DNA from: a virus
Taxonomy: Duplodnaviria > Heunggongvirae > Uroviricota > Caudoviricetes
Length of the DNA: 5,844 nucleotides
Strand: one strand, 5' to 3'
Virus record (IMG/VR): IMGVR_UViG_2713896791_000002
Shown here: positions 1,205 to 5,844 of the stretch, in pieces
Layout: each line of letters starts with the position of its first letter
Position numbering within the stretch: position 1 is the stretch's first letter
Notes under the pieces: model-generated
Databases searched by the model: none
Told to the model about the DNA's origin: nothing
The model's input: the letters and a program-made list of their open reading frames with translations, nothing else
Made by a program: the position numbers and the translations under genes

Positions 1205-1462
1205 ATGCGTACAACCCAACAATTCAGCATTACATTAACTAACGAAATGGCTGACATGGTGCGCGCCCGTGTGGCTTCCGGTGCCTATGCTTCAGAAAGC
1301 GAGGTCATTCGTGAAGGGCTTCGCGCACTGAATGAGCGCGATAAAGCAATCGAAGCGTGGTTAACGCATTCAGCCGCCCCCTCTCTTGATTCTATCCGCG
1401 AAAATCCAAACAACGGACGCTCCATTTCACAGGTTCGCGCCGCGATTCGATCCGGGAAGTAA
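1205..1462 (+). CDS. parD: ParD-family antitoxin (ribbon-helix-helix), type II toxin-antitoxin system
   Basis: MRTTQQFSITLTNEMADMVRARVASGAYASESEVIREGLRALNERDKAIEAWL... matches the ParD-antitoxin pattern (N-terminal RHH strand, then the ASGxYASxSEVIREGLR helix). ATG at 1205 is preferred over the track start at 1142 because of the SD and typical length (85 aa). Lies 5 nt upstream of a ParE/RelE-like ORF. Confidence 0.8.
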   Translation: MRTTQQFSITLTNEMADMVRARVASGAYASESEVIREGLRALNERDKAIEAWLTHSAAPSLDSIRENPNNGRSISQVRAAIRSGK

Positions 1463-1467
1463 TCTGC

Positions 1468-1767
1468 ATGACATATGAAGTCATCATTACTCCTGAGGCC
1501 GAACAACAAATAATCAACCTGCACAGGTATATAACGGAGAAAGCAGGGAACGTCATTGCTGACAATTATGCCAATGCGCTTCTTGATTATCTTGATGGGT
1601 TTTCTACATTCCCGCATCGGGGCAATAAACGCGATGATATTCGCCAGGGGATGCGGGTAACTCATTTCCGCCACAGAACGATTATTGCTTTTGCCGTTGA
1701 TAGCAGAAAAGTCTTTATTGTCGGTATCTATCATGGTGGGCAAAGTTATGAAACCGATTTCTTATAA
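1468..1767 (+). CDS. parE: ParE/RelE-family toxin, type II toxin-antitoxin system
   Basis: 99-aa ORF MTYEVIITPEAEQQIINLHRYI...RTIIAFAVDSRKVFIVGIYHGGQSYE, typical ParE/RelE size and C-terminal motif, immediately downstream of parD in the canonical antitoxin-toxin order. Confidence 0.8.
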   Translation: MTYEVIITPEAEQQIINLHRYITEKAGNVIADNYANALLDYLDGFSTFPHRGNKRDDIRQGMRVTHFRHRTIIAFAVDSRKVFIVGIYHGGQSYETDFL

Positions 1768-1891: not shown

Positions 1892-1975
1892 TTATCCCCA
1901 GCGGCAAATCGAATACACCACCAGCGCCACCGCCATCGCAATTCCTACCGTTGTGAATGCTTCAGGCCAGGTCAT
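1892..1975 (-). CDS. Possible 27-aa hydrophobic micro-protein ([27 protein letters not shown]); not in the ORF track
   Basis: ATG at 1975-1973 overlaps the TGA stop of the upstream 114-aa gene (ATGA); GGAGG lies 10 nt upstream; one predicted transmembrane segment; stop TAA at 1894-1892 just before the terminator hairpin. Very short, so speculative. Confidence 0.25.
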
Positions 1976-2316
1976 CGTAAAATATCCTCCACGCTTATCA
2001 GTCCGTTCCGCTCCAGATAACTCATCGCCTTATCCGGTAATTTGCAGTCTGGCTTCGCTTTCCTCAGTTGCCAGGTTAACTGCTTTACCAGCATGGTTAA
2101 CTCATCGACCAGACGCTGATATCCCACTGGTTTGTATTCATGCAATTTACCGGCTGGCTCTGCTGCCAGCGATACCAGTGCGATTTCCAGAACAGCAATA
2201 TCCATCTTATATGTGCGGATGATGTCATGGTCGATTGTGCCCGGTATGCACAGTCTCTGTGTTTCAATAGTCTCCTCTGCGTGAGCTATTAACTGCTCTC
2301 TGGTAAAAGTCGTCAT
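1972..2316 (-). CDS. Hypothetical phage protein (114 aa)
   Basis: Complete ORF whose ATG (2316-2314) overlaps the TGA stop of the HNH gene (ATGA). No recognisable domain. Confidence 0.6.
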
Positions 2317-2678
2317 GCCGTAGCCCCTTCTTGATATTTTTCAAACCAGAACACAACTGGGTCAGATTTCATTTCAACCAATCCCATACGAACCAGCGCT
2401 TTGCCTTTCCCGGACGCAAGGAATTCACGACGACCATCACTGATAATTCGCCGATAATCTTCCAGACTACTGCAATGCTTGTGCAGATTGCATGGGTGGC
2501 ATGCCGGAACCATGTTGGATATATCGTCACGTTCCTGGTGAAGCATATTTCCATCAAAACGAATGACCGGTTTTACATGGTCTGCATGCCACTTTTCGCC
2601 AAGTTCGCAGCCGCAATAAGCACAGCGACCGCCGAACTTCATGCGCAGCTCTGCACGTTGTTTTTTCGTCAGTGCCAT
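2313..2678 (-). CDS. HNH endonuclease (small, about 121 aa)
   Basis: [38 protein letters not shown]...[14 protein letters not shown]: the canonical CxxC ... HxDH ... N ... CxxC ... H HNH motif. ATG at 2678 is preferred over the track start at 2768 because it sits 1 nt after the upstream gene's TGA, with AAGGAAAG upstream. Confidence 0.85.
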
Positions 2679-2679
2679 A

Positions 2680-2898
2680 TCAGCTTTCCTTATACGGATT
2701 AATTTTATTGTGCAGTGTGCTGAACGACGCCCACACCACGTCGTTATACAATTCAATAACTGGCTCAATTATTTTCACGATAAACCAGACCAGTAATAGC
2801 GGGGGTATCGGTATCATCAACACGATAAATATAATGAGAAACAAAAATTCTGTCGCTCTACTTTTTCTCGGATATTCTTTTCTGAATAATGTAGTCAT
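2680..2898 (-). CDS. Small membrane protein (72 aa, one predicted TM helix)
   Basis: MTTLFRKEYPRKSRATEFLFLIIFIVLMIPIPPLLLVWFIVKII...: basic N-terminus followed by a roughly 25-residue hydrophobic stretch. ATG at 2898 is preceded by the conserved SD-hairpin element; stop is coupled to the HNH start. Confidence 0.6.
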   Translation of the reverse strand: MTTLFRKEYPRKSRATEFLFLIIFIVLMIPIPPLLLVWFIVKIIEPVIELYNDVVWASFSTLHNKINPYKES

Positions 2899-2930
2899 TT
2901 CTTACCGCCCTTTCAGGCGGCCTCCTGATG
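2899..2930 (-). promoter_or_regulatory. Conserved SD + GNRA-tetraloop hairpin translation-initiation element, copy A
   Basis: Minus strand: CATCAGGAGG-CCGCCU-GAAA-GGGCGG-UAAGAA-AUG. AGGAGG is followed by a 6-bp GC-rich stem (one U-G wobble) with a GAAA loop, then 6 nt to the AUG at 2898. Near-identical to copy B at 4019-4051. Confidence 0.5.
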
Positions 2931-2957
2931 TTTTGAGGGTGCAGAAATCCCTCCGGT

Positions 2958-2992
2958 TAAGGATTAAATTTTTAACTAAATTTAATTATTCA
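2958..2992 (-). repeat. AT-rich intergenic linker, copy A (partner at 4265-4322)
   Basis: Plus strand GGATTAAATTTTTAACTAAATTTAATTATTCAGG against GGATTAGATTTTATTTACAGCGCTAAATTTATTTATTCAG in copy B. Both start at the TAA stop of the upstream minus-strand gene and end at a GGAGG. Confidence 0.5.
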
Positions 2993-3621
2993 GGCGCGAT
3001 AAGCTGTTCCGCACAATCCAGCAATGCTTCTGTCGCTTCCTTAAGCGTTACTGTATCGCTATCATCCAGTCCTGCAACTTTTTCGTACCTGACAAACGCC
3101 GCGCAAAGCTCGTTAAACAACCCCGCCCGTACTTCAGCCAGGAAAGCGTCGGTGGCCGGAGTTTCAGGAATCCGTCTCCTCATCCGTTCTATTGCATGAT
3201 TGAACCCGAAATCTTCAGCAAGAGATACGTCATCCATATTGTCATTGTCGTCCTCAATATCCCGTGGTTCTGGAATTGCAGACTTTATTACCGCATTCTC
3301 CGCCGCCAGCGCCACAAGATTAGCTTTCAGCTCTGCAATTCGTTTGTTTTGGGCTTCCCGTTCATCCAGTAGTGCCAGCGCAACATTTGGATTAAAAGCA
3401 GCAATAAATTCAGCGTTTGCATAAGCCTGAACATCTGTTTCAACCAGGCAGTTAACATGACATTCTGCAATTACGCCACCGGGCTCTCCTTTCCATTTTT
3501 GACAAACAAAAACTCCTGTTATATTCCCATGCTGATTGCCCGATGTATGCCCTACGATGTAGCATCCTTTAGTTGCTTTCTCTGCTGCTTCACGCAGCGC
3601 CTGATAGTCAATCTCGCTCAT
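2986..3621 (-). CDS. Ead/Ea22-like family protein (211 aa)
   Basis: N-terminus MSEIDYQALREAAEKATKG..., central coiled-coil-like region (...REAQNKRIAELKANLVALAAENA...) and acidic stretch typical of lambdoid Ea22-like proteins. Shares its N-terminal motif with the paralog at 4649-5110. ATG overlaps the upstream stop (ATGA). Confidence 0.65.
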   Translation of the reverse strand: MSEIDYQALREAAEKATKGCYIVGHTSGNQHGNITGVFVCQKWKGEPGGVIAECHVNCLVETDVQAYANAEFIAAFNPNVALALLDEREAQNKRIAELKANLVALAAENAVIKSAIPEPRDIEDDNDNMDDVSLAEDFGFNHAIERMRRRIPETPATDAFLAEVRAGLFNELCAAFVRYEKVAGLDDSDTVTLKEATEALLDCAEQLIAPE

Positions 3622-3794
3622 TCATCGCCCCACTCATCACAATATGCTTCGACCGGATTTTTTCCTGCTTCATAATCATCACGCCATGCTTCAGCATCAG
3701 CAGCACTGCCACCACGTAACTCTGCATATTCCATTAACAGTTCATGCCATTCTTCAAAACTGACGCTGTATTTAGTTGAACCAAAATCAGCCAT
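3618..3794 (-). CDS. Small acidic hypothetical protein (58 aa); not in the ORF track
   Basis: Manual translation from ATG 3794-3792: MADFGSTKYSVSFEEWHELLMEYAELRGGSAADAEAWRDDYEAGKNPVEAYCDEWGDE, with stop TGA at 3620-3618 overlapping the Ea22-like ATG (ATGA). GAGGAAG SD about 8 nt upstream and an in-frame stop just upstream at 3818-3816. It fills an otherwise unexplained 170-nt space in a tightly packed operon. Confidence 0.45.
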   Translation of the reverse strand: MADFGSTKYSVSFEEWHELLMEYAELRGGSAADAEAWRDDYEAGKNPVEAYCDEWGDE

Positions 3795-4018
3795 TTTGTT
3801 CTTCCTCTTCGTCTTTTATTTCGTGATATGAATAATTGCAGTAGTTAAAGAAAATATCTTTTGCTTCGTCATGTATTTCATCAGGCGTCGCATCNNNNNN
3901 NNNNNNNNNNNNNNNNNNNNNNNNNNNNNNNNNNNNNNNNNNNNTCATCCACTTCGAATTCATCCTCGAAATCTCCACCGGCTATTCCCGTTTCAATAAT
4001 TATTTTAAACTTTCGCAT
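3787..4018 (-). CDS. Small acidic hypothetical protein spanning the 50-N gap (about 75 aa if the gap preserves frame)
   Basis: ATG at 4018-4016 directly after the SD-hairpin element gives MRKFKIIIETGIAGGDFEDEFEVDD...; after the gap the track frame reads ...DATPDEIHDEAKDIFFNYCNYSYHEIKDEEEEQNG. The two parts are in different frames across exactly 50 N, so the true gap length is probably not 50 or there is a frameshift. Confidence 0.4.
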
Positions 4019-4051
4019 TTAACTACCGCCCTTTCGGGCGGCCTCCTGACA
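4019..4051 (-). promoter_or_regulatory. Conserved SD + GNRA-tetraloop hairpin translation-initiation element, copy B
   Basis: Minus strand: UAA-U-GUCAGGAGG-CCGCCC-GAAA-GGGCGG-UAGUUAA-AUG. The whole 33-nt intergenic space between two small ORFs is SD, a perfect 6-bp GC stem with GAAA loop, then 7 nt to the AUG. Confidence 0.5.
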
Positions 4052-4264
4052 TTAATCGTTGTGGTAACTCATGGCTTCATTTGCAACATCAACCGGATCA
4101 ACCTCCCACCAGCAATAATTTGGTGCGTTTCCTTCAGGTGTCCACGGTTCTAATTCATTTTTTGCCGCATTCTCATCGCCAGTAATTTTAAAAATCTGCT
4201 CAGAGAATTTTCTTGCCCACTCGTTATATTTTTCCGCATTAATGGCTTTCTGTGTATTTAACAT
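4052..4264 (-). CDS. Hypothetical small phage protein (70 aa)
   Basis: ORF MLNTQKAINAEKYNEWARKFSEQIFKITGDENAAKNELEPWTPEGNAPNYCWWEVDPVDVANEAMSYHND with GGAGGT 8 nt upstream of the ATG at 4264; immediately follows the AT-rich linker copy B. Confidence 0.5.
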   Translation of the reverse strand: MLNTQKAINAEKYNEWARKFSEQIFKITGDENAAKNELEPWTPEGNAPNYCWWEVDPVDVANEAMSYHND

Positions 4265-4322
4265 AAATATACCTCCAGTTCAGGATTAGATTTTATTTAC
4301 AGCGCTAAATTTATTTATTCAG
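4265..4322 (-). repeat. AT-rich intergenic linker, copy B (partner at 2958-2992)
   Basis: See copy A. Here the linker and its GGAGG lead directly to the ATG of the 70-aa ORF. Confidence 0.5.
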
Positions 4323-4671
4323 TTCTGGATTTTGTCGCCCTGCGTATCCGCGCTTTCGCGTTACGTTCAATCTGAATTAACTTTTCTATATTTTTCCGCC
4401 TTTCCTGTTCCTCCTGGCGCAATAGCCTTACATCATCTGCCAGTCTGGTTTCTCTTTTCGCCACAGAGAGCATCCAGTCAAACGGCTCCACAACCGCACC
4501 GCAGATTTTACAGCGGACCTGGCGCTCTTTTTCGTCAACCCGAACAGAGGCGTGATGACAATATGGTCTTTCCGATGGCTCATAAAGAAAATTAACCTGA
4601 TTACGAGGGTCATCCTCTTTTACCGGAAATAAAACGATATTGCTTAACTCATCCTCTGGTTTTATTTCCAT
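4315..4671 (-). CDS. Hypothetical protein with Cys/His zinc-binding-like motif and basic coiled-coil-like C-terminus (118 aa)
   Basis: Strong SD AAGGAGAGGAG just upstream of the ATG at 4671. Motif ...YCHHASVRVDEKERQVRCKICGAVVEP..., then a Lys/Arg/Glu-rich C-terminus. Start overlaps the end of the upstream Ea22-like gene by 23 nt. Confidence 0.6.
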   Translation of the reverse strand: MEIKPEDELSNIVLFPVKEDDPRNQVNFLYEPSERPYCHHASVRVDEKERQVRCKICGAVVEPFDWMLSVAKRETRLADDVRLLRQEEQERRKNIEKLIQIERNAKARIRRATKSRTE

Positions 4672-5110
4672 GCTCCTCTCCTTTGATGCGAATGCCAGCG
4701 ACGCGTAATGCGTGTTCTAGGTCAATCAGGTAAAGCCAACTGCCATTTTCTTTAGGTATCATGACATGTCGCTCATCTGCATTTATCGGGTGTCCATATC
4801 GAAGGTCGTAGCGAGTCGGTAATTGAACTTCCCGCGCATCCAGTTCAGCAATACGCTTGCTCCCATCAGAGATAACGCCTTCGTAATACTCACGCTGCTC
4901 GTTGAGTTGTGATTTTGCTTCTTCCAGTCCATCCAGCAAACCAGCGATAATATCCGCTTCCCGATGACGGATATGACGCTTAAACGCAGCAAGAGCCGCA
5001 TCACAATCCCGTTCAGCATTTGGGCTGTCCGGGGTAGCCTGATACCACGCCAGCGTCGACTGATAGTTTTGTGCTGCCTCACGAAGCGCCTCATAGTTAA
5101 CCTCTCTCAT
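4649..5110 (-). CDS. Ead/Ea22-like family protein, second paralog (153 aa)
   Basis: N-terminus MREVNYEALREAAQNYQ... parallels MSEIDYQALREAAEKAT... of the 211-aa paralog, and both contain a KRIAEL segment. ATG at 5110 overlaps the stop of the DUF4406-like gene (ATGA); AGGAGG upstream. Confidence 0.6.
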   Translation of the reverse strand: MREVNYEALREAAQNYQSTLAWYQATPDSPNAERDCDAALAAFKRHIRHREADIIAGLLDGLEEAKSQLNEQREYYEGVISDGSKRIAELDAREVQLPTRYDLRYGHPINADERHVMIPKENGSWLYLIDLEHALRVAGIRIKGEEHGNKTRG

Positions 5111-5403
5111 CGAGCCACCTCCTGATAAATCACCGCATGCCCCAGTTTCTCCGCCAGTGCCAGCTCTGCCTTAGCGCCCGCTGACCGCTGCCAGCCATTC
5201 AGCATGTAAATCGCATCCACACAACGAATCATTGCCATGCAAATATCCATGTAGTGCGGCTGTGTCAGCCCGTCCGGAAGTACTGCCGGAGTTAAGACGG
5301 TATGCCCTTCCCGTTTCAGTTCCTCTTCCGCCTTGTGAAACGCCTCACGGTTGAAATTTTCATATCCCGTCATTGGACCGGCAATATAAACTCTCACCCT
5401 CAC
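5107..5403 (-). CDS. DUF4406-like protein (nucleoside 2-deoxyribosyltransferase-like fold), about 98 aa
   Basis: VRVRVYIAGPMTGYENFNREAFHKAEEELKREGHTVLTPAVLPDGL...DAIYMLNGWQRSAGAKAELALAEKLG: the YIAGPMTG N-terminal motif and overall pattern fit DUF4406. GTG start at 5403 is chosen because AGGAGG lies 7 nt upstream and it overlaps the upstream TGA (GTGA); the track start at 5472 would overlap the upstream gene by 70 nt. Confidence 0.65.
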   Translation of the reverse strand: MRVRVYIAGPMTGYENFNREAFHKAEEELKREGHTVLTPAVLPDGLTQPHYMDICMAMIRCVDAIYMLNGWQRSAGAKAELALAEKLGHAVIYQEVAR

Positions 5404-5792
5404 TCCATCACCTCCTGAAAGTTTCCCCGATAGAACGCCAGCACACGCTGCATAACTTCGCTCTGGCGGCACTCACGACAAATTATGTTCTGCCGTCTGT
5501 TGTAACGACGTATTTCTCCGTCAGGTAACTTTCGAATCAGTGTCGGGTCAGCAGCCTTCTCCGGTGTCTTACGCCATACGCGATACGCCTGCTCTGATGG
5601 AAATACCCCGCAACCAGAGAGCCAGACATCACCACTGGCCGCAAGCGCACCAGATAAACGACGAATAGCGGTCTTACTGACACCCGTTTTATCTGCCAGT
5701 TGTCGAAAAGTTTCTCGTCCGCTCAGGCGCACGAATTCCACAATGCGCGCCTTCACTTCTTCCCGCTCTTCTGGTGTAAATTCTTTTGCCAT
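5400..5792 (-). CDS. Putative HTH DNA-binding protein (about 130 aa)
   Basis: ATG at 5792 with GGAGG 5 nt upstream is preferred over the track's non-ATG start at 5807. Segment TFRQLADKTGVSKTAIRRLSGAL looks like a helix-turn-helix. First gene of the coupled chain visible in the window. Confidence 0.55.
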   Translation of the reverse strand: MAKEFTPEEREEVKARIVEFVRLSGRETFRQLADKTGVSKTAIRRLSGALAASGDVWLSGCGVFPSEQAYRVWRKTPEKAADPTLIRKLPDGEIRRYNRRQNIICRECRQSEVMQRVLAFYRGNFQEVME

Positions 5793-5844
5793 AAGCGCCT
5801 CCGGCAATCACTTTTCCGATACAACACGGCGGGAAGAATCAGTA

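Follow-up and report, generated by a model that had tools for sequence, protein, structure and literature searches.

The two spacers at 2903-2993 and 4024-4322, on the minus strand of the window (the whole 5,844-nt stretch of viral DNA that was analyzed), are most probably copies of one conserved intercistronic cassette, which lambdoid prophages of E. coli and Shigella carry in their accessory-gene arrays and whose neighboring genes are reassorted by recombination; the probability of this reading was put at about three in four. On the mRNA strand, the short form of the element opens with CTGAATAA and an AT-rich linker; AATCCTTAACCGGAGG and a spacer of 23 nt come next, followed by AGGAGG, a GAAA-loop hairpin of 7 bp, and 6-11 nt leading to an ATG. 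The long form is the same element with a 70-aa gene (phrog_4659) replacing the 23-nt spacer. Within the element, a 61-nt core extends from AATCC through the hairpin and comprises AATCCTTAACCGGAGG, which includes a first Shine-Dalgarno sequence (SD1), the 23-nt spacer, AGGAGG (SD2) and the 7-bp GAAA-loop hairpin. For most upstream families, CTGAATAA marks the start of the shared block, and it often gives the upstream gene its last codons and stop. The element extends from the stop codon of the upstream gene to a point 6-11 nt short of the following ATG.

Two copies of the element in the window

On the minus strand, alignable sequence was found after the stops of the Ead/Ea22-like 211-aa gene (2986-3621; PF13935, E 3.5e-39), upstream of copy A, and of the 118-aa gene (4315-4671), which lies upstream of the element more often than any other gene. 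The copy A sequence is CTGAATAATTAAATTTAG-T-TA-AAAATTTAATCCTTAACCGGAGGGAT and the copy B sequence is CTGAATAAATAAATTTAGCGCTGTAAATAAAATCTAATCCTGAACTGGAGGTAT. Their local alignment gave a score of 50, compared with 15.5 ± 2.6 (sd) and a maximum of 27 for a background of 2,000 dinucleotide shuffles, none of which reached 50, and no other place in the window scored as high. The linker reported after both genes in the initial annotation was thereby confirmed, and its similarity proved to be far above that expected of AT-rich sequence. The linker is indeed short and AT-rich, and the prophage region of the window contains only two copies of the element, as a mere local duplication or a chance likeness in AT-rich DNA, with no wider meaning, would have it; but the alignment score lies ∼13 sd over the shuffles and thousands of copies occur in other genomes between unrelated flanks, and this reading is already refuted, with practically no probability left to it.

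Copy A (2903-2993), a short form, runs from CTGAATAA (2986-2993), which overlaps the last codons and the stop (TAA, 2986-2988) of the Ea22-like gene, to GGGCGGTA. CTGAATAA and the AT-rich linker together occupy 2966-2993, followed by the left core AATCCTTAACCGGAGG (2950-2965), with an SD1 (GGAGG, 2950-2954) that, in the short form, has no gene to serve. The spacer GATTTCTGCACCCTCAAAACATC (2927-2949) stands in place of the 70-aa gene; it separates the GGAGG at 2950-2954 from the AGGAGG at 2921-2926 by 23 nt, which corrects the distance of 18 nt given originally. SD2 and the hairpin (2904-2926) consist of AGGAGG (2921-2926) and CCGCCU-GAAA-GGGCGG (2905-2920), with 6 nt to the ATG (2896-2898) of the DUF4014 gene (2680-2898), putatively served by this SD-hairpin.

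Copy B (4024-4322), a long form, contains CTGAATAA (4315-4322), the AT-rich linker and the left core AATCCTGAACTGGAGG (4272-4287) within 4272-4322, then the 70-aa gene (4052-4264), the optional insert of the element, and finally SD2 with the hairpin (4025-4047). In this copy, 7 nt separate SD1 (4272-4276) from the ATG that begins the 70-aa gene, and SD2 (AGGAGG, 4042-4047) and stem-loop (CCGCCC-GAAA-GGGCGG, 4026-4041) are followed by 7 nt to the ATG (4016-4018) of the DUF7167 gene (3787-4018). The latter is putatively served by SD-hairpin B and is interrupted in the window by a 50-N scaffold placeholder. The order described earlier for this copy, namely linker, 70-aa ORF, SD-hairpin and next ORF, was thus found to be accurate.

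The SD-hairpin constitutes a 26-nt direct repeat (2903-2928 and 4024-4049, 96% identical), which brackets a 1,096-nt segment (2929-4023, minus strand) in which lie the DUF7167 gene, a 58-aa ORF, the Ea22-like 211-aa gene, and the linker and spacer of copy A. The linker and SD-hairpin motifs are found in three spacers (of 87, 50, and 33 nt), which are the sole real intergenic gaps, the rest of the gene train overlapping or abutting. An HNH gene is located two genes downstream of copy A. The 70-aa protein matched no Pfam or NCBIfam family, and no informative Pfam, PHROG or NCBIfam match was obtained for the 70-aa, 118-aa, 58-aa, and 114-aa proteins.

Distribution of the element and reassortment of its flanks

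The short form was detected at 1,941 places in 1,604 of the 5,426 complete E. coli genomes (∼30%) and the long form in 636 of them, and more than 120 IMG/VR contigs were found per motif; these locus counts are samples in which related loci are not independent, and the first scan demanded the exact hairpin. Among the species representatives, the element was confined to E. coli and Shigella. Five of the eight species-representative matches were ordinary terminators of unrelated bacteria and were discarded. A seventh real copy was observed on a Collinsella MAG scaffold, which is probably mis-binned. Prophages of O26, O103, O145, and O45 strains and Stx2a phages are among the hosts of the element, which was also present in Rac-like phages, mEp460 and ArgO145-type Stx2a phages, and a BLAST search against 50,697 phage records matched 19 of them. 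The hairpin sequence was found in no searchable paper, and a literature search on the gene family names yielded nothing relevant. The motif occurs in many gene contexts and in both early operons, and its absence from gene boundaries in related phages, which would have spoken against a boundary sequence, was not what the survey gave: hundreds of related prophages carry it there.

At the IMG/VR loci, 140 instances of the short-form unit were distributed over 74 haplotypes, and conservation reached 90% or more in most columns. Its flanks comprised at least 11 upstream and at least 14 downstream gene families, of which 38 combinations were occupied. The identity of the 61-nt core was 93.8% across 1,371 sampled pairs in which neither 300-nt flank was related. 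When the polymorphic sites were subjected to the four-gamete test, all four gametes were present in 153 of 378 pairs. Moreover, sites 1-35 were linked to the upstream family and sites from 100 onward to the downstream family, while sites 57-87 were linked to neither. The polymorphisms in CTGAATAA and the AT-rich linker were tied to the upstream gene family (U 0.7-1.0), and the left core contained no common polymorphism. Accordingly, the initial emphasis on the AT-rich linker held in that a boundary element exists, but the conserved, recombining unit is the whole element of ∼100 nt, and the AT-rich part is its least conserved portion and travels with the upstream gene.

The element was found in two states, with a bimodal distance between linker and hairpin of 23 nt (72 cases) or 217-224 nt (25 cases). 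In all 80 gene-anchored loci, the 70-aa gene was situated within the element, flanked by the linker and the SD-hairpin. One locus (L002) is an orthologue of locus B of the window on both flanks and is without the 70-aa gene, and four pairs of upstream and downstream families occur in both states; the gene-sized indel that had been proposed is therefore real. SD1 was mutated in ∼10-13% of the short forms and in none of the 80 long forms. The suggestion that the genes lying between linker and hairpin be catalogued led to a real slot, but to one gene family only and never a variety, given that nothing other than the 70-aa gene family was found in the slot in the hairpin-, linker- or gene-anchored samples. 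The 23-nt spacer was also considered as a remnant of the 70-aa gene, and this was rejected: the spacer halves matched the 5' and 3' ends of the gene no better than shuffles did, 78% and 93% of the shuffles scoring at least as high.

A second gene-sized polymorphism was found between the two copies. Two loci (L109 and L193) that are otherwise 99-100% identical to the window lack exactly 1,096 nt between the two hairpin repeats; they align to 4750-4024 and 2928-2500 of the window, and the alignments overlap by the 26-nt repeat. Two nested presence/absence polymorphisms are thus bounded by the element. Together, the 38 family combinations, the break in linkage within the element and the presence or absence of the 1,096-nt segment supply the recombinant junctions that had been sought. 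The earlier view of a short conserved boundary sequence mediating module exchange gains support from these data, refined by the reassorted flanks and by the location of the exchange points within the core.

The core is the sole near-identical DNA between otherwise unrelated neighboring genes, and homologous crossovers therefore fall inside it. Such crossovers would reassort the upstream and downstream genes and toggle the 70-aa gene, and those between two copies in one genome would delete or insert the intervening DNA. They may be made on this short homology by phage recombinases of the Red/RecET type or by those of the host; lambda Red recombines diverged sequences efficiently (PMC2327257). 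Homologous exchange accounts for the reshuffling of genes already beside the element, not for the first arrival of new families.

An active or targeted mobile cassette would account for part of the same pattern, whether as the site of a dedicated recombinase, as the target of HNH homing with co-conversion of the flanks, or as a mover by mini-circles like those of the T4-type PeSLs. Near-identical prophages either carry or lack the three-gene segment between the direct repeats, and its excision would yield a circle as the reciprocal product; the HNH gene lies close to copy A, and the element turns up in many gene contexts and in both early operons. Nevertheless, the exchange points are scattered over the core and not gathered at one fixed site, the element carries no promoter or terminator, the sequence showed neither terminal inverted repeats nor target duplications, and no recombinase gene was annotated among the immediate neighbors at the two annotated loci examined. 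HNH-driven homing, or a free-standing homing-endonuclease cassette, was rejected on the basis that an HNH homologue occurred within 2.5 kb in only 14 of 70 contexts. A mobile cassette was accordingly regarded as very unlikely, and homologous exchange at the core is retained as the preferred reading.

The SD-hairpin unit and conservation of the core

Judging from its sequence, the element probably supplies the ribosome-binding signal of the next gene. Measured along the sequence, SD2 and the AUG are 22-27 nt apart across families (22 nt for copy A and 23 nt for copy B), which would be too far on linear RNA; the hairpin would shorten this path to 6-11 nt. In the long form, the 70-aa gene would be translated from SD1. 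The copy A hairpin has 7 bp, and the minimum free energy (MFE) of its 38-nt segment was -13.6 kcal/mol, with none of 200 shuffles as stable; that of the 39-nt segment of copy B was -15.5 kcal/mol. Both SD2 and the AUG were left unpaired in the MFE structures. The seventh pair of copy A is formed by the last G of SD2 with U2904, and this pair was kept as G-U, A-U or G-C in 71 of 74 sequences. The GGAG of SD2 was invariant in 28 haplotypes. At least five unrelated gene families have the stem 6-11 nt from their AUG, usually without a further SD in the interval: none was present between hairpin and AUG in the DUF4014, DUF7167, MTELTK, and MQEIK families, the exception being the MEITK family, which has its own GGAG after the stem. 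From this geometry, we infer that the hairpin may act as a split ribosome-binding site like that of T4 gene 38.

In the covariation analysis of the hairpin, 93.5% of the cells were paired, 11 of 168 were unpaired, 14 were U-G wobble cells and one double change was found; the result was not significant, and the shuffle control was uninformative. RNAalifold gave only weak, unvarying extra helices when a larger conserved RNA fold over the element was sought, and the Rfam covariance models gave no match at E ≤1 over 1900-5844 of the window.

The hairpin might instead be mainly mRNA punctuation, that is, a barrier to 3' exonucleases, a 5' stabilizer after RNase E cleavage in the AU-rich linker, or a pause site or weak terminator, the element still being a recombination linker. 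Such a role would suit a very stable GC-rich stem-loop with an AU-rich single-stranded stretch just upstream; the identical hairpin sequence followed by a T-run is an ordinary terminator in unrelated bacteria, and the covariation does not discriminate between the possible roles. On the other hand, the stem is not followed by a U-tract in any context, the coding strand yielded no terminator-like site, and a stability element would need neither the strict AGGAGG abutting the stem nor the spacing of 6-11 nt to the AUG before unrelated genes. Punctuation as the main role was thus considered unlikely, a translation-initiation role being preferred.

Within one orthologous class, the pairwise difference was 1.9% in the core, against 4.1% and 11.4% at the third codon positions of the flanking genes. 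The core may stay conserved as the translation-initiation region of the downstream gene. However, the left core, which serves no gene in the short form, was at least as invariant as the hairpin, and this invariance is left unexplained by a translation role of SD2 and the hairpin. Part of the low diversity of the core could be due not to selection but to a single, recent origin followed by spread.

Conservation of the non-coding core beyond third codon positions would also be expected if the SD-adjacent hairpin were the operator of a phage or host RNA-binding protein that placed the downstream genes under common translational control, with the 118-aa or the 70-aa protein as candidates. The hairpin and its adjoining bases are nearly invariant before unrelated genes, and the 118-aa gene, by far the commonest upstream neighbor, encodes a protein whose Zn-ribbon match is weak and below threshold (21.5 bits; cut-off, 29). 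Yet no RNA-binding domain above threshold was detected in any neighboring protein, and the element is also found with neither candidate gene adjoining; an operator was therefore held to be highly improbable. In a broader proposal, the cassette would be more than passive shared homology and would form a self-maintaining "plug" for accessory genes: the hairpin, perhaps with the invariant left core, would be a putative operator for a phage or host factor and would bring every gene behind it under one post-transcriptional control, selection for this control would keep the homology by which prophages trade genes, and recombination between copies might release PeSL-like gene circles. This proposal was judged distinctly doubtful.

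Comparison with known systems

Short conserved boundary sequences, or "linkers", have been proposed for lambdoid module exchange (Susskind and Botstein, 1978; Clark et al., 2001, as cited in PMC3029335). Like these, the element is a short gene-boundary sequence conserved between phages with unrelated neighboring genes, its flanks are reassorted, and the exchange points lie within the conserved sequence. Unlike them, it exists in two allelic states that differ by a gene, and its core includes the SD-plus-hairpin unit. The element was not found by BLAST in HK620, P22, lambda, HK97 or HK022. At most mosaic joints, boundary sequences are not findable, as stated in a paper on mycobacteriophage genomics, and it is for this reason that illegitimate recombination is usually invoked (PMC3029335). 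The old idea of module exchange at short boundary sequences gains a sequence-defined example, present in ∼30% of complete E. coli genomes. Since the reassorted flanks, the mapped exchange points and the two nested polymorphisms are available in a well-studied system, the model is directly testable by crosses. In addition, the element is a practical marker for the boundaries of small accessory genes.

The element resembles lambda-type nut sites in having a short GC stem with a GNRA-type loop in an early phage transcript. In a lambda-type nut site, boxA lies a few nucleotides upstream of a pentaloop boxB, near the promoter. By contrast, the element is present in several copies that lie kilobases into the operons, immediately next to an SD and a start codon. 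Identity with a nut site was rejected, as no boxA-like match was found in or near the elements and the loop is of 4 nt, not a pentaloop. The hairpin is GC-rich and of terminator strength, like an intrinsic terminator, but differs in the lack of a U-tract after it. Likewise, the 70-aa gene is comparable to a moron in being a small extra gene (function unassigned) that is present or absent, but it has no promoter or terminator of its own and is putatively expressed within the operon through SD1.

The T4-type PeSLs (Arbiol et al., 2010, PMC2839356; Comeau et al., 2014, PMC4122927) are likewise repeated intergenic stem-loop cassettes among small non-essential genes with no assigned function, and recombination between their copies also gives whole-gene insertions, deletions, and replacements. 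PeSLs consist of a strong sigma-70-like early promoter and a working terminator (PMC2839356, PMC4122927), whereas the present element has neither, lies inside an operon and resembles a translation-initiation region. No promoter-like site was found in either copy, and no terminator was found in the element on the coding strand, where UAAGAAAUG, UAGUUAAAUG and similar sequences, with no U-tract, come after the stem. The one terminator-like call was on the opposite strand and was set aside; it used a different 5-bp pairing, and its T-run was broken in most other copies.

In its geometry, the SD-hairpin unit corresponds to the split ribosome-binding sites of T4 genes 38 and 25 (Nivinskas et al., 1999; Malys and Nivinskas, 2009; PMC3014915). 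In both systems, a canonical SD lies 22-27 nt from the AUG and a stable hairpin fills the interval, which shortens the spacing from 22 to 5 nt for gene 38 and from 27 to 11 nt for gene 25 (PMC3014915), and would leave an effective spacing of 6-11 nt here. The element has no sequence relationship to the T4 sites, and its putative function is read from this geometry; in contrast to the T4 sites, its unit is portable and is found before at least five unrelated genes in temperate phages. If the hairpin works in this manner, the element would represent a portable split ribosome-binding site outside the T4 group.

Genomic setting of the accessory genes

A lambdoid prophage of E. coli O26:H11 strain 11368 matches the window with 100% identity, and so do prophages in many other O26, O103, O45 and O145 strains. 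The genes of interest are located on the minus strand and, in the O26 prophage, are flanked by replication gene P upstream and by the DUF968 and RusA genes downstream. In minus-strand order they are DUF977, DUF4406, a 153-aa Ea22/RseB-like gene, a 118-aa gene (with a weak, sub-threshold Zn-ribbon match), a 70-aa gene, DUF7167, a 58-aa gene, a 211-aa Ead/Ea22-like gene, DUF4014, HNH and a 114-aa gene. All junctions of this gene train overlap or abut, with three exceptions: 50 nt separate the 118-aa and 70-aa genes, 33 nt the 70-aa gene and DUF7167, and 87 nt the Ea22-like gene and DUF4014.

Positions 1900-4924 are 99.6% identical to the Stx2a phage ArgO145, whose copy of the block occupies the other early operon, with exo/ssb on one side and int on the other. 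Judging from this comparison, the whole gene array has moved between both early operons; the accessory block (∼3 kb) is downstream of gene P in the O26 prophage and in the early-left operon of ArgO145 (L191, record coordinates 5026-8349). A ParD/ParE toxin-antitoxin pair (1205-1767, plus strand) lies on the opposite strand directly past the gene train, and has a matching relative position in ArgO145. Through a 27-nt inverted repeat (804-830 and 3006-3032, 85% complementary), the 3'-terminal sequence of the Ea22-like gene recurs in inverted orientation beyond this cassette, which may be the scar of an older rearrangement. For NC_013361, PGAP marks the 211-aa ORF (2986-3621) as a pseudogene 'missing C-terminus' that covers window 3109-3621 only, and in RefSeq ArgO145 an identical ORF is listed as intact. 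Runs of 50 N occur at 207-256 and 3895-3944; between 583 and 650 there are single n. The length of both runs is arbitrary, as they are scaffold placeholders, and the window thus comes from a draft assembly; in NC_013361, 199 bases correspond to the first run and a single base, within the DUF7167 gene, to the second.

One element in two states

The initial annotation described an AT-rich linker recurring after the 211-aa and 118-aa genes (copies A and B, respectively). The two copies can be aligned from CTGAATAA through GGAGG with a local score of 50. Dinucleotide shuffles (n = 2,000) scored 15.5 ± 2.6 and never as high as 50; the similarity thus exceeds that of an AT-rich background. When the whole window was compared, no second region matched as well. 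Chance or purely local duplication was excluded as the source of the resemblance. Each linker leads to an SD-hairpin, that is, a Shine-Dalgarno motif abutting a GAAA-loop stem, which forms a 26-nt direct repeat (2903-2928 and 4024-4049, 96% identical). The order proposed for copy B (4024-4322, minus strand), with the 70-aa ORF between linker and SD-hairpin, was borne out, whereas the spacing in copy A (2903-2993, minus strand) measured 23 nt rather than the 18 nt reported.

IMG/VR was scanned twice, with a hairpin query and a linker-core query (at least 120 contigs each), and the loci anchored on either feature are samples among the matches listed. Among the hairpin-anchored matches listed, the upstream sequence was the copy-A spacer in ∼100 of 124 loci and the 3' end of the 70-aa gene in ∼19; the next hairpin followed the linker at 23 nt in 72 cases and at 217-224 nt in 25, and no linker lacked a hairpin. 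A catalogue of the linker-anchored new loci, among the matches listed, contained either spacer plus hairpin or the 70-aa gene after the linker, and nothing else. Loci anchored on the 70-aa protein had the linker upstream and the SD-hairpin downstream in 80 of 80 cases. These distances and contexts together indicate one element with two states.

The short form (∼100 nt) consists of CTGAATAA, the AT-rich linker, AATCCTTAACCGGAGG with the first Shine-Dalgarno motif (SD1), a 23-nt spacer, AGGAGG (SD2), the hairpin CCGCCC-GAAA-GGGCGG, TA plus 4-9 nt, and ATG. It was represented by 74 haplotypes among 140 instances, and conservation was 90% or higher in most columns; the left core is strongly conserved there, though SD1 serves no gene. 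In the long form the 70-aa gene (phrog_4659, its only annotation) takes the spacer's place, with SD1 as its predicted SD. The proposed gene slot is therefore occupied or empty at different loci, but by this single family only. The inferred gene-sized indel, either a gain or a loss of the 70-aa gene, was found directly in L002, a locus orthologous to that of copy B on both sides, which carries the short form.

Of 5,426 complete E. coli genomes, 1,604 carried the short form (1,941 places in total, at most 5 copies per genome) and 636 the long form (coverage at least 80%). Among one-genome-per-species representatives, the true element was confined to E. coli and Shigella, plus one 'Collinsella' scaffold (JAIHTM010000290.1, 3,030 bp); the remaining matches were ordinary terminators. 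On this scaffold the 118-aa gene and DUF7167 flank an element of the usual E. coli type, and the DNA is most probably a mis-binned piece of an E. coli prophage. In the phage collection searched, 19 records (ArgO145-type Stx2a phages, Rac-like phages and mEp460) contained the element, and lambda, P22 and HK620 did not. PP818812.1, labelled 'Actinobacillus phage vB_Apl-pPE4', has it at 11314-11421 (90.7% identity), and its matches to genes of the window are 93% identical. This is unexpected for a Pasteurellaceae host, and the label or host range may need correction.

Reassortment of flanking genes

When 157 distinct instances were clustered by their 300-nt flanks, 11 upstream and 14 downstream families were obtained, with 38 combinations occupied and four family pairs seen in both states; this clustering was used for the reassortment figure, since the ungapped discordant-pair count is inflated by indels. 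In 1,371 sampled pairs with both flanks unrelated, the 61-nt core (left core, spacer, SD2 and hairpin) was 93.8% identical, against 64.7% for the 45 nt of AT-rich linker. The stretch stressed initially is thus part of the element, but its least conserved portion.

All four gametes were observed at 153 of 378 pairs of common polymorphic sites within the element. Sites 1-35 predicted the upstream family (normalised information 0.7-1.0) but not the downstream one (0.2-0.35), sites 57-87 predicted neither, and sites from 100 onwards predicted the downstream family (0.65-1.0). This shift in linkage indicates exchanges within the invariant left core and within the hairpin region. The L002 linker is itself a hybrid, B-like on its 5' side and A-like on its 3' side. 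Two further loci, L109 and L193, match window 4750-4024 (99.3%) and 2928-2500 (100%). Both matches overlap by the 26-nt repeat, and the loci therefore lack exactly 1,096 nt (2929-4023), comprising DUF7167, the 58-aa gene, the Ea22-like gene and linker A. On sequence grounds, this is the product expected of an exchange between the two hairpin copies of the window, or of the reverse insertion. The same arrangement, with DUF4014 downstream, is the commonest setting of the 70-aa gene (∼69 of 80 loci).

These data support the element as a recombination joint that would reshuffle flanking genes. The original observation is confirmed and its module-boundary interpretation upheld with refinements, as the conserved unit is larger than the linker and takes in the hairpin. 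The data make an active mobile mechanism improbable: the points of exchange are dispersed through the element, promoter, terminator and terminal repeats are missing, and an HNH homologue was nearby in only 14 of 70 contexts. Red recombines diverged sequences efficiently (PMC2327257), and Red-mediated recombination would be a plausible enzymology for the exchanges.

Translation-initiation geometry and known systems

Neither a promoter-like nor a terminator-like site was detected on the element's coding strand, Rfam gave no match, and no boxA was found at the element. The right half of the element resembles a translation-initiation region of unusual geometry. All 28 hairpin haplotypes retain GGAG in SD2, and the 7-bp stem with its GAAA loop begins at the last base of SD2. 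For 38-39-nt segments (−13.6 and −15.5 kcal/mol), SD2 and AUG are unpaired in the minimum-energy fold. In five or more unrelated families of downstream genes, the AUG comes 6-11 nt after the stem, mostly without an intervening SD; the SD2-to-AUG distance is 22-27 nt linearly and 6-11 nt with the stem formed. Folding of the stem would bring SD2 near the AUG, as in a split ribosome-binding site. A role of the hairpin in mRNA stability, processing or pausing is a less probable alternative, which agrees less closely with the adjoining SD and the constant distance to the AUG.

The seventh stem pair (G-U, A-U or G-C) is kept in 71 of 74 sequences. Changes of C to T in the 5' arm, which retain a U-G pair in the mRNA sense, numbered 15 against 2 G-to-A changes in the 3' arm, counted across haplotypes that are not independent events; formal covariation of the hairpin was not significant. 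SD1 was intact in 80 of 80 long forms and mutated in about one-tenth of short forms, where no gene uses it. When instances of a single orthologous class (118-aa gene, short form, DUF7167) were compared in pairs, the non-coding core differed by 1.9%, and third codon positions of the flanking genes by 4.1% and 11.4%. Such conservation is the one argument for a protein-bound operator, which is a possible alternative to the initiation region. In the MTELTK downstream family (several IMG/VR loci), a 4-codon mini-ORF (ATGAAAAATGACTGA) often lies between hairpin and main start and overlaps the main ATG, either incidentally or with a possible effect on initiation. In L138, L168 and L180 (IMG/VR), the 3' end of the stem is the exact limit of homology and unrelated sequence without a nearby start codon follows, e.g., GGCGGCTGTTCCGCTG.

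No earlier description of the element sequence was found in the literature searched, the linkers of Clark et al. (2001) lying outside the comparison. The element is well documented, widespread and readily testable, and unsurprising in principle. It behaves as required by the proposal of short conserved boundary sequences in lambdoid phages (Susskind and Botstein, 1978; Clark et al., 2001; both as cited in PMC3029335); at most mosaic joints, such sequences are reported not to be found (PMC3029335). In T4-type phages, PeSL cassettes, which are repeated intergenic stem-loops, mediate gene shuffling (PMC2839356, PMC4122927); the element resembles them in this respect, but is missing their promoter and terminator. 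In the split ribosome-binding sites of T4, spacing is reduced from 22 to 5 nt (gene 38) and from 27 to 11 nt (gene 25), and efficient initiation requires the stem (PMC3014915). Based on sequence and predicted fold, the SD2-to-AUG geometry of the element would match that of these two genes.
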